From positions 1 to 20,133 of IMG/VR virus record IMGVR_UViG_3300020160_002689: a stretch of 20,133 nt of DNA; one strand, written 5' to 3'. Each line of letters starts with the position of its first letter. Position 1 is the stretch's first letter. Made by a program: the position numbers and the translations under genes. This DNA is from a virus. Lineage: Duplodnaviria > Heunggongvirae > Uroviricota > Caudoviricetes. The notes beneath the pieces are model-generated. The model worked only from the letters and a program-made list of their open reading frames with translations. It was not told where the DNA came from and made no database searches. Of this stretch, positions 6,898 through 10,110 are shown piece after piece.

Positions 6898-6935
6898 AAT
6901 TATTATATTAAATTATTTTACAAAGATACAAAAAT

Positions 6936-6969
6936 AAAAAGACATTATCAAATTAGATAATGTCTTTTT
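6936..6969 (-). terminator. Intrinsic terminator closing tRNA array A
   Basis: AAAAAGACATTATC-TAATTT-GATAATGTCTTTTT hairpin immediately after the last tRNA. Confidence 0.85.
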
Positions 6970-6973
6970 GTTG

Positions 6974-7054
6974 AGCTAGTGACAGGATTTGAACCTGCGA
7001 CGTTGGAGTTCCTACTTACAAGGTAGGTGCAATCGACCACTATGCGACACCAGC
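6974..7054 (-). tRNA. trnT: tRNA-Thr(TGT), extended variable region
   Basis: GCTGGTG/CACTAGC acceptor; CCTAC-CTTGTAA-GTAGG anticodon arm; 12-nt variable region; GCAGG-TTCAAAT-CCTGT T arm. Confidence 0.9.
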
Positions 7055-7062
7055 ATTTTATG

Positions 7063-7136
7063 AGCTTCTCATTGGATTCGAACCAATAACATCCACATTA
7101 CTAAAGTGGTACTCTGGCCAGTTGAGCTAGAGAAGC
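7063..7136 (-). tRNA. trnT: tRNA-Thr(AGT), A34
   Basis: GCTTCTC/GAGAAGC acceptor; CCACT-TTAGTAA-TGTGG anticodon arm (U31-U39 mismatch); standard T arm. Confidence 0.85.
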
Positions 7137-7145
7137 ATATTTTAG

Positions 7146-7233
7146 AGGTATAGGTAGGATTTGAACCTACGATGATGAAATTAATCATTACAGTTTTGCA
7201 GACTGCACCTTTCGACCACTCAGGCACTATACC
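7146..7233 (-). tRNA. trnC: tRNA-Cys(GCA), long variable arm
   Basis: GGTATAG/CTATACC acceptor, U73; GCAGT-CTGCAAA-ACTGT; 19-nt variable region. Confidence 0.9.
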
Positions 7234-7242
7234 ATTTTTCAG

Positions 7243-7315
7243 AGCTTCTGGACGGGCTCGAACCGACGACATCCTCATTACAAGTGAGGTGCTCTACCAA
7301 CTGAGCTACAGAAGC
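7243..7315 (-). tRNA. trnT: tRNA-Thr(TGT)
   Basis: Canonical cloverleaf; CCTCA-CTTGTAA-TGAGG. Confidence 0.95.
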
Positions 7316-7320
7316 ATTAG

Positions 7321-7391
7321 AGGTGCTGACTGAATTTGAATCAGTGTAGGAGGTTTTGCAGACCTCTGCCTAACCACTCGGCCACAGCACC
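7321..7391 (-). tRNA. trnC: tRNA-Cys(GCA)
   Basis: Canonical cloverleaf; GAGGT-CTGCAAA-ACCTC; U73. Confidence 0.95.
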
Positions 7392-7393
7392 AT

Positions 7394-7972
7394 TTATTTT
7401 ATTTCTAAAAGATTTTCATGTATTTCTCTATGACAATTTGCACATACTAAAATACACTTATCTAATTCATCTTTAATCTTATCCCAAGCTGTACACATAT
7501 TTTTTGATAGTGTAAAATCTTTTTTAGAGGGATCCAAATGGTGAAACTCTAATGCGGATACACACTTATTATATTCACATATAACACATTTACCACCTTT
7601 ATATTCTACTGCTTTTTCTTTTGTTCTTTTTCTAAATGTTTTTGTTCTTATATAGTTAGACTTTCTTCTATCATCATCACTATCAAATGTAAACTTTTTA
7701 TTCTCACCATATTTGGTAACGGTACTTCTACCTACACCAAATTCCTTCATTGTTTCCTCTATAGAATTTAGTTTATAAAATTCTTTCAATTTTTCAATTT
7801 CATCTTTATCTAACTTTTTACCAGAATTAAGACCTATATCATTTAACATTTCACTCTTACAAAAGTAAGAAATTAAACTTCTAGAACAATTTAATTCTTT
7901 TTGTATTTCTCTATAGCTTTTACCTTGTTTTCTTAGTAAAATTATATTTTCTTTTTTAGAACCTTCAACCAT
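7394..7972 (-). mobile_element. HNH homing endonuclease with N-terminal HTH, inserted in tRNA array A
   Basis: HTH (GKSYREIQKELNCSRSLISY); CxxC...LEFHHLDP...CANCHREIH; own TTAATATATA motif at 7990-7999. Confidence 0.9.
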
Positions 7973-8019
7973 AACATATCTTTTTATGATATATATTAAT
8001 TTTTTGGTTCTACCTTTTG

Positions 8020-8092
8020 TTGGTACTGTGGGTTACGATCCCACTACCTTTCGCGTATCAGGCGAATGCTCTACCGAGTGAGCTAAGTACCA
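8020..8092 (-). tRNA. trnI: tRNA-Ile(GAT)
   Basis: TGGTACT/AGTACCA acceptor; TTCGC-CTGATAC-GCGAA; atypical T-loop ATCGTAA. Confidence 0.9.
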
Positions 8093-8100
8093 ATATATTG

Positions 8101-8174
8101 TGATTCCTGTAGGATTCGAACCTACGACCTCTTGCATGTTAAACAAGCGCTCTTACCAGCTGAGCTAAGGAATC
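8101..8174 (-). tRNA. trnV: tRNA-Val(AAC), A34
   Basis: Canonical cloverleaf; CTTGT-TTAACAT-GCAAG. Confidence 0.9.
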
Positions 8175-8179
8175 TCTTG

Positions 8180-8262
8180 TAGGTCTACTCGGACTCGAAC
8201 CGAGATTATACTTCACGTCTCTTCCATGTAAAAGAAGGATGTTGCCATTACACCATAGACCT
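8180..8262 (-). tRNA. trnV: tRNA-Val(TAC), extended variable region
   Basis: AGGTCTA/TAGACCT acceptor; CTTCT-TTTACAT-GGAAG; 16-nt variable region. Confidence 0.88.
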
Positions 8263-8268
8263 ATTTAG

Positions 8269-8349
8269 TTGGCACAGAGGGATTTGAACCCACATTTTCA
8301 ACAACCATTTACAGTTCTCCAACTTATCAGGTTGGGCTGGTATGTGCCA
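8269..8349 (-). tRNA. Arm-rearranged tRNA-like RNA with Ile(GAT) anticodon arm
   Basis: Perfect 7-bp acceptor TGGCACA/TGTGCCA and a T arm; anticodon arm CCAAC-CTGATAA-GTTGG only 7 nt after the acceptor; D-loop-like TAAATGG lies 3' of it. Confidence 0.75.
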
Positions 8350-8354
8350 ATATG

Positions 8355-8441
8355 CTACTGGGGTGGGATTCGAACCCACGGTGGAGCTGTGCTCATCAGA
8401 TTAACAGTCTGAACCGTTCGGCCAACTACGGCAACCCAGTA
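8355..8441 (-). tRNA. trnN: tRNA-Asn(GTT), long variable arm (Tyr-like scaffold)
   Basis: TACTGGG/CCCAGTA acceptor, G73; TCAGA-CTGTTAA-TCTGA; variable hairpin GAGC-ACA-GCTC. Confidence 0.88.
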
Positions 8442-8447
8442 ATTTTG

Positions 8448-8518
8448 CTCTCCCACCAGGACTCGAACCTGGAATAACTGATTAACAGTCAGACGTGATA
8501 CCATTTCACCACAGGAGA
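8448..8518 (-). tRNA. trnN: tRNA-Asn(GTT)
   Basis: Canonical cloverleaf; loop CTGTTAA; G73. Confidence 0.93.
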
Positions 8519-8527
8519 ATATTTATA

Positions 8528-8563
8528 TAAAAGAAAAGACCCAAACTTTATGTTCGGGTCTTT
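8528..8563 (-). terminator. Intrinsic terminator between leader A and tRNA array A (candidate attenuator)
   Basis: AAAGACCCGAAC-ATAAA-GTTTGGGTCTTT-TCTTTT, ending about 10 nt before the first tRNA. Confidence 0.88.
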
Positions 8564-8587
8564 AGAAATTGTTTATAATATATGAGT

Positions 8588-8677
8588 TTATACTATACAT
8601 AACTGCTTACCCGATGTTGTGTTATTCACACAATTCGTAATCGTAATCACATTAATATTTATAGTAGTTGTTTTCAT
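8588..8677 (-). CDS. Leader peptide A, 29 aa (MKTTTININVITITNCVNNTTSGKQLCIV)
   Basis: Hand-translated; 22 of 29 residues are T/I/N/V/C, the amino-acid set of the downstream array. Confidence 0.85.
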   Translation of the reverse strand: MKTTTININVITITNCVNNTTSGKQLCIV

Positions 8678-8682
8678 TGTTT

Positions 8683-8752
8683 TATATATTAAATTTTTAT
8701 TGTCCCTTTTTGGTTTTTTTGTTTTTCTTTGATTATTTATAGTACAAAAGTA
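8683..8752 (-). promoter_or_regulatory. Tandem promoters for array A: TACTTTTG (8745-8752) and TTAATATATA (8683-8692)
   Basis: Same block as 192-250 and 9822-9881. Confidence 0.7.
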
Positions 8753-8772
8753 ATATAAAGTTTTTAATCTAC

Positions 8773-8997
8773 CTAATCTTTTATTATTTTTTTTAATTTA
8801 TTTTCTCTTTCTTCTCTAAGAGTAACATCTTCAGCTATTTCTTTATTGAATATAAGATATGTTGATCCACAACTATCACAATACCACCCATCAGTGTTCC
8901 AAGGTAAATCCTCAGGTGAATATTCAATTTCATCCTTCTTACAATGTAAACAAGGTTTCACTTCATATATCTTATCTTCAACTTTAATTAGTTTCAT
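8773..8997 (-). CDS. Small zinc-ribbon protein
   Basis: CLHC and CDSC pairs; C-terminal RENKLKKII motif. Confidence 0.75.
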   Translation of the reverse strand: MKLIKVEDKIYEVKPCLHCKKDEIEYSPEDLPWNTDGWYCDSCGSTYLIFNKEIAEDVTLREERENKLKKIIKD

Positions 8998-9010
8998 ATC
9001 TTAGTTTTTG

Positions 9011-9091
9011 TACAGGTAGTCGGACTCGAACCGACACTCTTTTCAGAACACGGTCCTAAGCCGTGCGCGTATACCATTTCGCCATACCTGC
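9011..9091 (-). tRNA. trnL: tRNA-Leu(TAG)
   Basis: CACGG-CTTAGGA-CCGTG; class II variable arm; A73. Confidence 0.95.
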
Positions 9092-9102
9092 ATATTTTTT
9101 TG

Positions 9103-9185
9103 TACCGAGAGCGGGACTCGAACCCGCACATCCTTTCAGATAATAGCCTCTTAAACTACCGTGTCTACCATTCCACCACCTCGGC
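9103..9185 (-). tRNA. trnL: tRNA-Leu(AAG), A34
   Basis: Leu scaffold GCCGAGG...TCTCGGT-A; GTAGT-TTAAGAG-GCTAT; a shifted register giving TAA does not pair. Confidence 0.85.
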
Positions 9186-9195
9186 AGGTGATTAG

Positions 9196-9276
9196 TACCC
9201 CAGATAGGATTCGAACCTATATTTTCAGTTTCCAATTACCCGTAGTTGTTTAGAAGACAACTGGGACTACTGAGGC
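9196..9276 (-). tRNA. Arm-rearranged tRNA-like RNA with Arg(TCT) anticodon arm
   Basis: GCCTCAG/CTGGGGT acceptor; GTTGT-CTTCTAA-ACAAC 8 nt after the acceptor; D-loop-like TAATTGG 3' of it; ATAGG-TTCGAAT-CCTAT. Confidence 0.75.
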
Positions 9277-9284
9277 ATATTTTG

Positions 9285-9369
9285 TATCGGGAGAGGGACT
9301 CGAACCCTCACGGACATTACTGTCCACAGATTTTTAAGACCTGCGTGTCTACCATTCCACCACCCCGAC
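9285..9369 (-). tRNA. trnL: tRNA-Leu(TAA)
   Basis: CAGGT-CTTAAAA-ATCTG; class II variable arm GGAC-AGTAAT-GTCC. Confidence 0.95.
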
Positions 9370-9372
9370 AGA

Positions 9373-9459
9373 TGGTACCGAGAGCGGGACTTGAACCCGC
9401 ACGCCACAAGGGCACAAGATTTTAAGTCTTGCATGTACTACCAATTTCATCACCTCGGC
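9373..9459 (-). tRNA. trnL: tRNA-Leu(TAA), with encoded CCA
   Basis: CAAGA-CTTAAAA-TCTTG; 3' end TCTCGGT-A-CCA. Confidence 0.95.
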
Positions 9460-9466
9460 ATTATTT

Positions 9467-9570
9467 AATTAATAGTAGGACTCGAACCTACACTAAGTTT
9501 ATTTCATCCTTAGCCATATCCTCTATATCTCTGTATAAAGTTAGGTGTTTACCAGTTCCACCATATCAAT
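9467..9570 (-). ncRNA. 104-nt tRNA-like element with no canonical anticodon arm
   Basis: ATTGATA/TATTAAT acceptor, Leu-type D arm GTG-GAACTGGTAAA-CAC, T arm GTAGG-TTCGAGT-CCTAC; 52-nt non-canonical middle. Confidence 0.6.
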
Positions 9571-9572
9571 TG

Positions 9573-9644
9573 TGACCCCACAGGGATTCGAACCCCGATT
9601 GAAAGCTTAGAAGGCTTTAGTCCTATCCATTGAACGACAGGGCC
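9573..9644 (-). tRNA. trnR: tRNA-Arg(TCT)
   Basis: Canonical cloverleaf; AAAGC-CTTCTAA-GCTTT. Confidence 0.95.
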
Positions 9645-9653
9645 AATTTAAAA

Positions 9654-9687
9654 CAAAAAACCCAAAACTTTTTGAGTCTTGGGTTTT
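9654..9687 (-). terminator. Intrinsic terminator between leader B and tRNA array B (candidate attenuator)
   Basis: AAAACCCAAGACT-CAAAA-AGTTTTGGG-TTTTTTG, ending about 10 nt before the first tRNA. Confidence 0.88.
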
Positions 9688-9714
9688 GTTATTTGTTATA
9701 ATACTTTTAATTGA

Positions 9715-9816
9715 TTACCAACTAAAATCATTTCCAAATTGAGCAAAACCCATCCCTTGTCTTAAAGATAAGACAGTCAGTGTTAAGTTTCTTCTATTTA
9801 GAATTGTTGTGTTCAT
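9715..9816 (-). CDS. Leader peptide B, 33 aa (MNTTILNRRNLTLTVLSLRQGMGFAQFGNDFSW)
   Basis: Hand-translated; 5 Leu and 3 Arg (all AGA) codons within codons 6-19, matching the Arg(TCT)/Leu array. Confidence 0.82.
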   Translation of the reverse strand: MNTTILNRRNLTLTVLSLRQGMGFAQFGNDFSW

Positions 9817-9821
9817 AATTG

Positions 9822-9881
9822 TATATATTAAAGTTTTATTCTCTCTTTTTGTTTATTTGTTATTTTTATAGTACAAAAGTA
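9822..9881 (-). promoter_or_regulatory. Tandem promoters for array B: TACTTTTG (9874-9881) and TTAATATATA (9822-9831)
   Basis: Same block as 192-250 and 8683-8752. Confidence 0.7.
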
Positions 9882-9906
9882 TAAAAAGTTTTCTATTGTA
9901 CCTAAT

Positions 9907-10110
9907 TTATTTTAATTTATTTTTAATTTTTTCTGTAATCTTCTCTAAACTTGATTTAGATTTAGGTTTTTGTTTTGGAAATCTACCATGGTTTCCCATA
10001 CTATCATAGTCTGTACATTGATATGCTGCAGGTGATGGTAATCCACTATAGTAACAGAATTCTTCTTCACTAAGTATTTCTTCTTGTTCTTGGTTTTCTT
10101 TTGGATTCAT
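9907..10110 (-). CDS. Hypothetical protein
   Basis: 67-aa ORF coupled to the upstream gene; FCYYSGLPSP motif. Confidence 0.7.
   Translation of the reverse strand: MNPKENQEQEEILSEEEFCYYSGLPSPAAYQCTDYDSMGNHGRFPKQKPKSKSSLEKITEKIKNKLK

Follow-up and report, generated by a model that had tools for sequence, protein, structure and literature searches.

Five putative leader-peptide attenuators ahead of tRNA arrays in a huge-phage genome fragment

The window analyzed here is the whole 20,133-nucleotide stretch presented above, corresponding to bases 1-20133 of an 84-kb IMG/VR contig (28% GC) that carries 42 tRNA hits. On sequence grounds the contig represents part of the genome of a huge phage, kin to the 634-kb Bacteroidota-type phage LR745206.1 (uncultured; 634,780 bp), which has ~74% nucleotide identity to the source phage in shared genes. 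tRNA genes were called with ARAGORN and Rfam; an ARAGORN run permitting unlimited introns returned only artefacts and was discarded. Relatives were obtained by exact-pattern scans of IMG/VR, which yielded five related contigs, and their tRNA regions were compared. Together with LR745206.1 these make up a comparison set of six other genomes. Note that the relatives are few and that some are close kin, so several of the counts given below are non-independent.

On the minus strand of the window, a promoter-like block (P1) and the motif TTAATATATA (P2) precede an ORF of 29 codons, a predicted intrinsic terminator and 11 tRNA genes (cassette A, Table 1). This order had been described in the initial annotation, and all of its coordinates were confirmed. 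P1 contains TACTTTTG, which fits the Bacteroidota sigma-A -7 consensus, TAnnTTTG. The block is kept at four cassettes of the source genome and also in relatives; because it is missing from the A- and F-type cassettes of some relatives, it appears to be dispensable. The P2 motif may serve as a phage-specific promoter or as a start context, and if it is a promoter, the mRNA would be nearly leaderless. It occurs 27 times in the contig versus ~6 times expected, and an ATG is found 4-6 nt after it also at ORFs of 73-747 amino acids. Since this spacing is common to long ORFs, the leader ATG lies in a bona fide gene-start context.

Residues 3-21 of leader A are 19 consecutive Thr, Ile, Asn, Val or Cys. 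ARAGORN and Rfam agree on the composition of array A (two Asn, two Ile, two Val, two Cys and three Thr tRNA genes), which is limited to these same five amino acids, as the initial annotation had it. One of these tRNAs (8269-8349, 34.5 bits) is non-canonical and several are 82-89 nt long. The array is split by an inserted endonuclease-like ORF that carries its own TTAATATATA motif at 7999, and the second half of the array is also reachable from this motif. The inserted ORF is missing in some relatives, and one RNA-library contig joins 7393 to 8100.

The hairpin of terminator A was calculated at -16.7 kcal/mol, and the fold of leader A as a whole has a z-score of -3.4. A scan for terminator-like sites returned 8 in 4 kb versus 1.8 expected. 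The first tRNA of array A begins at 8518, ~7-10 nt past the T tract, so a promoter has no room there. We also considered a promoter inside the terminator itself (TAAAGTTTG, in the loop and 3' arm). This candidate was rejected, as its spacing is wrong for TAnnTTTG and it is not conserved in the other cassettes.

Table 1. Positions of the cassette features on the contig (window, bases 1-20133). Single positions are those given for TTAATATATA.
Feature	Position	Strand	Description
Source window	1-20133		part of 84-kb IMG/VR contig
P1, cassette A	8737-8752	minus	promoter-like block TACTTTTGTACTATAA
P2 motif, cassette A	8683-8692	minus	TTAATATATA, 5 nt upstream of leader ATG
Leader ORF A	8588-8677	minus	29 codons + stop; regulatory run codons 3-21 (8615-8671)
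In-ORF hairpin	8617-8633	minus	6 bp; codons 15-20
Antiterminator segment A	8609-8614	minus	TCGGGT; codons 22-23; complementary to ACCCGA in terminator 5' arm
Predicted intrinsic terminator A	8525-8563	minus	12-bp stem (8563-8535), 5-nt loop, T tract TCTTTTATAT
Array A, first half	8019-8518	minus	Asn(gtt), Asn(gtt, 88 nt), Ile(gat)-like (81 nt), Val(tac, 84 nt), Val(aac), Ile(gat)
Inserted ORF	7394-7972	minus	192 aa; HTH/NUMOD1-type, HNH-like C-terminal Cys/His motif; splits array A
Array A, second half	6973-7391	minus	Cys(gca), Thr(tgt), Cys(gca, 89 nt), Thr(agt), Thr(tgt, 82 nt)
Terminator closing array A	6936-6969	minus	from terminator scan
Cassette A	8692	minus	leader Thr/Ile/Asn/Val/Cys; array Asn, Ile, Val, Cys, Thr
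Cassette B	9648-9881	minus	TTAATATATA at 9831; P1 9866-9881; P2 9822-9831; 33-codon leader 9715-9816
Cassette B, leader and terminator		minus	Leu x5, Arg-AGA x3; antiterminator TGGGTTTTG 9744-9752; terminator 9657-9687
Array B	9010-9644	minus	Arg(tct), Leu(taa) x2, Leu(aag), Leu(tag), two odd tRNA-like genes
Cassette C	51347	minus	leader Phe/Lys/His/Trp; array Lys, Trp, Phe, His
Cassette D	31-250	minus	TTAATATATA at 201; P1 235-250; P2 192-201; 32-codon leader 88-186; terminator 31-62
Cassette D, leader core		minus	codons 11-19, MPQPMQDQD (Met/Pro/Gln/Asp); antiterminator AAACTAAC 109-116
Cassette F	49650	minus	leader Ser run + Arg-CGT; array Arg(acg), Ser(tga), Ser(gga), Ser(gct)

Cassette A is one of five on the contig, all on the minus strand and all with the same layout: TTAATATATA, a spacer of 5-8 nt (5 in four cassettes), ATG, an ORF of 25-34 codons, an intrinsic terminator and tRNAs. 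The terminator stems are 12-13 bp long and GC-containing. The distance from the end of the T tract to the first tRNA is 4-15 nt in every cassette, which leaves no space for a promoter behind the terminator. The genes downstream of the putative attenuators are tRNA genes only, plus the inserted endonuclease ORF. A sixth array, E (from 33751; Met, Tyr, Glu, Ile-tat, Gly, Ala), has TTAATATATA directly before it and no leader ORF. Neither a leader nor a terminator was found at array E in any genome compared, and none of the leaders compared has a run enriched in array E residues.

Codon content was evaluated using 20-residue or 20-codon windows of the phage's own sequence as the null (from long ORFs and from all open frames, respectively). 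In leader A, 19 of 20 residues at codons 2-21 belong to the array set, versus ~6 expected. This value is reached by none of the 20-residue windows of the phage's long ORFs and by a fraction of 4e-5 of open 20-codon windows. Under strict wobble rules, 18 of these 20 codons are readable by array A anticodons. For the five leaders, amino acids of the own array are enriched 3.2-, 3.5-, 3.7-, 3.3- and 5.0-fold at codons 2-21, with binomial P values of 1.5e-9, 1e-3, 1.1e-5, 6.8e-4 and 2e-6, respectively. The true assignment of leaders to arrays is the single best among 120 permutations, and no off-diagonal cell is significant. The two highest off-diagonal values, leader B to array A and leader C to array F, involve tandem neighbours; in each case the array follows the leader's own array directly, and its codons are therefore sampled by the upstream leader as well. 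For Arg, the match extends to the choice among synonymous codons, which follows the anticodon: leader B has three AGA, for tRNA tct, and leader F has CGT, for tRNA acg. Leader F uses four kinds of Ser codon, and each of them can be assigned a cognate tRNA from the set Ser(tga), Ser(gga) and Ser(gct).

Leader composition also tracks array content in homologues, as the comparison of the five paralogous cassettes with the six related genomes revealed. The array of cassette D runs off the contig start, and from leader D we predicted, before the relatives were seen, that this array holds Pro, Gln, Met and Asp tRNAs. Behind the D-type leader, four relatives carry Gln(ttg), Pro(tgg) and Asp(gtc), to which one of the four adds Met(cat). 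A frameshift affects the N-terminus of leader D in one near-identical genome. A-type leaders of three relatives show five differences within the run, of which two are synonymous, two stay within the set (Thr to Asn and Ile to Val) and one falls outside it. When relatives were aligned, indels within the ORFs measured 3, 3 and 27 nt, and those past the stop codons were of arbitrary lengths. In LR745206.1, arrays A and B have become one (Asn, Arg, Leu, Val, Ile, Thr, Met, others) behind a single leader, the first 25 codons of which comprise Thr, Met, Asn, Leu, Val, Ile, Cys and Arg; ARAGORN finds a tRNA in the fused array for all of these but Cys. The C-, F- and D-type leaders of LR745206.1 match their arrays, and its Met/Glu/Tyr/Gly array is leaderless.

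Asn/Ile/Lys/Thr-rich frames are common in a genome of 28% GC, and AT-rich spacers might by chance yield short ORFs rich in Ile, Asn and Thr that are followed by unrelated terminators. However, the window statistics already take this genome's own frames as the null, and AT bias leaves the Phe/His/Trp, Pro/Gln/Asp and Ser/Arg(CGT) leaders unexplained. All five cassettes match their own array, the blind prediction for leader D came true, and only 1 of the 120 permutations scores this well. An origin by chance is effectively refuted.

In nine cassettes, a segment that follows the codon run and lies inside the ORF pairs with the 5' arm of the cassette's own terminator. These antiterminator segments are partial copies of the terminator 3' arm (e.g., TGGGTTTTG, AAGTTCGG, CTGAGGGTT and GATTCGA). 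For cassette A, the complementarity between TCGGGT and ACCCGA had been pointed out in the initial annotation and was verified, and in A-type relatives it reaches 7 bp (TTCGGGT). The corresponding pairs are TGGGTTTTG with CAAAACCCA in cassette B, AAGTTCGG with CCGAACTT in cassette C, CTGAGGGTT with AACCCTCAG in the fused leader of LR745206.1 and GATTCGA with TCGAATC in the F-type cassette of the same genome. In D-type cassettes of all genomes, ACTAAC pairs with GTTAGT, which sits where arm and loop meet in three unrelated terminators. The duplex of cassette A was calculated at -10.4 kcal/mol (P ~0.01-0.02 versus shuffles or genomic segments), and P is ~0.02 each for cassettes A, B and C. The antiterminators of D and F in the source genome are weak, at -7.2 to -7.4 kcal/mol for D (P 0.26) and -6.5 kcal/mol for F. 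CAGG repeats, tried as the antiterminator of leader D, were at chance level, and the conserved ACTAAC/GTTAGT pairing fits better.

The segment changes together with the terminator, in line with the pairing proposed at the outset. Across 13 cassettes, pairing of an ORF with its own arm averages -10.5 kcal/mol, versus -6.8 kcal/mol for cross pairings, and 0 of 20,000 permutations were as good. Covariation was read from alignments, in which there are few distinct sequences per cassette type. Comparison of type B with three relatives revealed a three-way change, T to C in the antiterminator, A to G in the 5' arm and T to C in the 3' arm, such that T/A/T in the alignment becomes C/G/C. In the antiterminator, this is part of a replacement of ATG by CCG, i.e., of Met by Pro, which is non-conservative for the peptide and compensatory for the RNA.

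The last observation bears on whether the small ORFs could encode functional micropeptides, with terminators that just end them or insulate the arrays. Their conservation in relatives and their gene-like start contexts would suit this reading. Yet the peptides are of low complexity, they differ wholly between paralogous cassettes with conserved flanks and they change with array content. Such a role would also leave tRNAs without a promoter of their own behind a terminator, and the Met-to-Pro change makes sense at the level of RNA. We regard functional micropeptides as very improbable.

Equilibrium folding of full-length leaders returned the terminator every time. Because such folds cannot separate the two states, truncated transcripts were used instead. 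In transcripts cut before the 3' arm, the minimum free energy (MFE) structures of A, B and C pair the 5' arm with ORF codons 19-25, and the antiterminator forms in truncated folds even without a ribosome. Ribosome occupancy was modeled by masking. With the A site at codons 2-16 the antiterminator pairing is kept, and with the A site at approximately codons 17-27 it is abolished, which is the classical pattern for stalls at regulatory codons. The 6-bp hairpin inside ORF A, also noted in the initial annotation, is present in both MFE and centroid folds, where it is lengthened by CGA/TCG. So extended, it would sequester part of the antiterminator and is a candidate 1:2 element. An upstream hairpin of the 1:2 type is partial in A, clear in B (MFE) and not evident in C.

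The stop codons come 5-13 codons downstream of the antiterminator and are separated from the terminator 5' arm by 25-40 nt. Given this distance, a terminating ribosome cannot melt the terminator. In equilibrium folds of A, B and C, a ribosome at the stop codon leaves the antiterminator unmasked, and termination in the unstalled state must then rely on kinetics. The same folds would be expected if the parts served an opposite or different logic, in which efficient translation promotes read-through or stalling alters precursor processing or stability. We consider this improbable. Besides the distance between stop codon and 5' arm, the antiterminator directly follows the regulatory run on its 3' side, the placement known from classical attenuators, and positive feed-forward would give no reason for a leader to match its own array.

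None of the Rfam leader families (Thr_leader, His_leader, Leu_leader, Trp_leader, Bacteroid-trp and others) matched, and only tRNA hits were obtained in the window. Likewise, there was no Rfam hit to a T-box in 8500-9900, either at the gathering threshold or at E values up to 1. These searches are relevant to the alternative that an untranslated RNA senses tRNAs directly through codon-like sequence in T-box fashion. It would have the same terminator/antiterminator output, and pairing of the codon run with anticodons is conceivable. Against it stand the lack of leader hits to the T-box or any other Rfam family with E values as high as 1, a single uninterrupted frame that begins with ATG in the motif context of long genes and ends with a stop, and indels that keep the frame. 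In addition, 19 different specifier codons in a row would be without precedent. Direct sensing of this kind is, in our estimate, highly unlikely.

The leader was found in contigs of RNA-type libraries from freshwater, wastewater and marine samples. A 189-nt RNA-library contig (8525-8713) was considered as a terminated transcript and dismissed, since its ends are strain-variable homopolymers (poly-A at 8713 and the T tract). The RNA-library contigs have a depth of 2-13 and may stem from DNA carry-over, and they were not counted as showing a terminated transcript.

Cassette A is most probably (at roughly 0.85, as judged from sequence) one of five leader-peptide transcription attenuators that gate phage tRNA arrays by ribosome stalling. 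The ribosome-stalling reading was put forward in the initial annotation, and codon matching, covariation and masked folds all support it. By this mechanism, transcription would start at P1 and/or the TTAATATATA motif, and a ribosome would translate the short leader. When cognate aminoacyl-tRNAs are scarce, the ribosome would stall in the Thr/Ile/Asn/Val/Cys run (A site at approximately codons 3-16), leaving the segment at codons 21-24 free. This segment could then capture the terminator 5' arm as it emerges, allowing RNA polymerase to read through into the tRNA genes. With fast decoding, the ribosome would be passing over codons 21-24 during synthesis of the terminator, such that the hairpin forms and transcription stops ~10 nt before the first tRNA. 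For termination in the unstalled state, kinetic options include a ribosome on codons 17-27 during terminator synthesis, trailing ribosomes and refolding of the upstream or 1:2 hairpin. We infer translation of the leader, stalling, termination at the hairpin and the direction of the switch from these features; for translation, the gene-like start context and the indels that preserve the frame lend indirect support. The phage thus probably makes a tRNA set only when ribosomes slow on the matching codons. Since the regulated genes would be the tRNAs that read the test codons, the arrangement amounts to a negative feedback in which the supply of each tRNA group is matched to decoding demand.

Control by leader-peptide attenuation has been in textbooks for some fifty years, and enterobacterial examples include thrL (Thr/Ile), the ilvGMEDA leader (Ile/Val/Leu), trpL, hisL, leuL and pheL. 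The phage cassettes resemble these in their short ORF with a run of codons for several amino acids, in the terminator placed before the regulated genes and in an exclusive antiterminator that would form upon stalling, and leader A is similar to the thr leader in its Thr/Ile-rich composition. They differ in that they are phage-borne and number five per genome, in that the antiterminator lies inside the ORF and in that the mRNA is probably leaderless or nearly so. Moreover, the enterobacterial attenuators target biosynthetic enzymes, whereas the phage cassettes target tRNA genes, which would close the loop on tRNA rather than on amino-acid supply. In Escherichia coli, the pheM leader attenuates pheST, encoding phenylalanyl-tRNA synthetase, by decoding of cognate codons. 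This is likewise leader-peptide attenuation of a component of the translation apparatus, but its target is a synthetase and a single amino acid is involved, whereas the phage targets are tRNAs in groups of two to five amino acids. T-box riboswitches also sense tRNA status and choose between terminator and antiterminator ahead of translation-related genes. However, they bind uncharged tRNA directly and are untranslated, whereas the sensor of the phage would be a translated ORF.

To our knowledge, described leader-peptide attenuators control only genes for amino-acid biosynthesis, transport and synthetases. The phage cassettes would differ from all described attenuators known to us in their target, namely tRNA genes. 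Our literature search found no publication on attenuation of tRNA genes, an absence that is no proof.

Al-Shayeb et al. 2020 (PMC7162821) reported a 634-kb genome of the Mahaphage clade with a predicted Bacteroidetes host. They described tRNA counts and translation genes of huge phages, which carry many tRNAs thought to redirect translation (PMC7162821). These are the same kind of genome as the source phage, and neither 'attenuat' nor 'leader' occurs in the text of that paper.

On a broader scale, it is possible, though we hold it only tentatively, that the cassettes form a genome-wide regulon of decoding demand that doubles as a counter-defence sensor of host tRNA cleavage or depletion (anticodon nucleases, host shut-off). 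As a regulon, the five attenuators would each meter one tRNA group and, with the constitutive sixth array, cover nearly the whole code. As a counter-defence sensor, loss of a host tRNA would cause stalling on the matching leader and turn on exactly the replacement tRNAs. Whether the specific trigger would be starvation or host anticodon nucleases of the PrrC, AriB or PtuAB type is speculation.

The five paralogues and their homologues in six genomes constitute a natural mutagenesis series, in which the leader is rewritten whenever array content changes. Being compact (~170 nt) and modular, the cassettes could be put to use as natural sensors that report on the availability of particular tRNAs. 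A connection to the arms race that involves tRNA-cleaving defence systems is also plausible. If the switch acts on the tRNAs that read its test codons, it would provide direct feedback between decoding speed and tRNA supply. Attenuation by leader peptides would thereby offer a concrete, testable answer to the question of how the tRNA sets of huge phages are regulated, and it would explain why their arrays are sorted by amino acid.

Where two arrays lie in tandem, the upstream leader seems, on its codon content, to sample the codons of both sets. Leader B, which precedes the Arg(tct)/Leu array, additionally contains nine Asn/Thr/Ile/Val codons, and the next array downstream is A (Asn/Ile/Val/Cys/Thr). 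Leader C, which precedes the Lys/Trp/Phe/His array, contains four Ser codons, and the next array downstream is the Ser/Arg array F. In the near-identical genome G004 (tRNA region L117), leader D has lost its first 10 codons to a frameshift, and the ORF reads MKM-stop. An in-frame ATG is kept immediately 5' of the Pro/Gln/Asp core, and the terminator of this D-type cassette has a wholly different stem, with GTTAGT retained at the arm/loop junction.

Over the whole contig, the motif TTAATATATA was found in 27 copies versus ∼6 expected, and its distance to the ATG was either 4-6 nt or 17-26 nt. These two spacing ranges suggest that the start contexts fall into two classes, or that the motif is a putative promoter yielding both leaderless and leadered mRNAs.

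Each of the HTH/NUMOD-type, HNH-like ORFs inserted in the arrays had its own TTAATATATA. Their presence varies among relatives, and in one RNA-library contig the ORF at 7394-7972 is missing, with position 7393 joined to 8100. They look like mobile homing elements aimed at tRNA arrays. In G001 and G005 (related genomes), the interval between arrays B and A is too short for the 74-aa CxxC ORF; only ∼100-120 nt separate the last Leu tRNA from the TTAATATATA of cassette A, and the promoter-like block P1 is absent.

For many tRNAs of the window, a canonical gene had a partner of 81-104 nt that shared its anticodon and had either a long extra arm or rearranged arms. Some of these partners (9196-9276, 9467-9570) were overlooked or mis-typed by ARAGORN. 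In four tRNAs, namely Val(aac), Leu(aag), Thr(agt) and Arg(acg), position 34 is A. To our knowledge, A34 in bacteria is normally confined to Arg(acg). The set suggests that inosine is formed on non-Arg tRNAs or that A34 decodes unmodified.

Features of the leaders and tRNA arrays.
Feature	Window	Contig	Remarks
Leader B	9715-9816		
Leader C		51225-51329	
A34 tRNAs	8100-8174, 9102-9185, 7062-7136	49414-49499	
Partner tRNAs	8354-8441, 8179-8262, 7145-7233, 6973-7054, 8269-8349, 9196-9276, 9467-9570		examples: Asn(gtt), 88 nt; Cys(gca), 89 nt
HTH/NUMOD-type, HNH-like endonuclease ORFs	7394-7972	about 48500-49270	inside arrays; other arrays too
74-aa ORF	8773-8997		two CxxC pairs; weak DUF7836 match; between arrays B and A
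Array E		33751 downward	Met/Tyr/Glu/Ile(tat)/Gly/Ala

For window positions 6900-10000, at least six studies had freshwater, wastewater or activated-sludge metagenomes that contained the phage or close strains, with 56-98% of sampled words present.

The first tRNA of array E lies ∼25 nt after TTAATATATA. Neither leader nor terminator was found before this array in any genome examined (the contig and regions L108, L112, L119 and L123), and it therefore looks like a constitutive array, alongside five gated ones.
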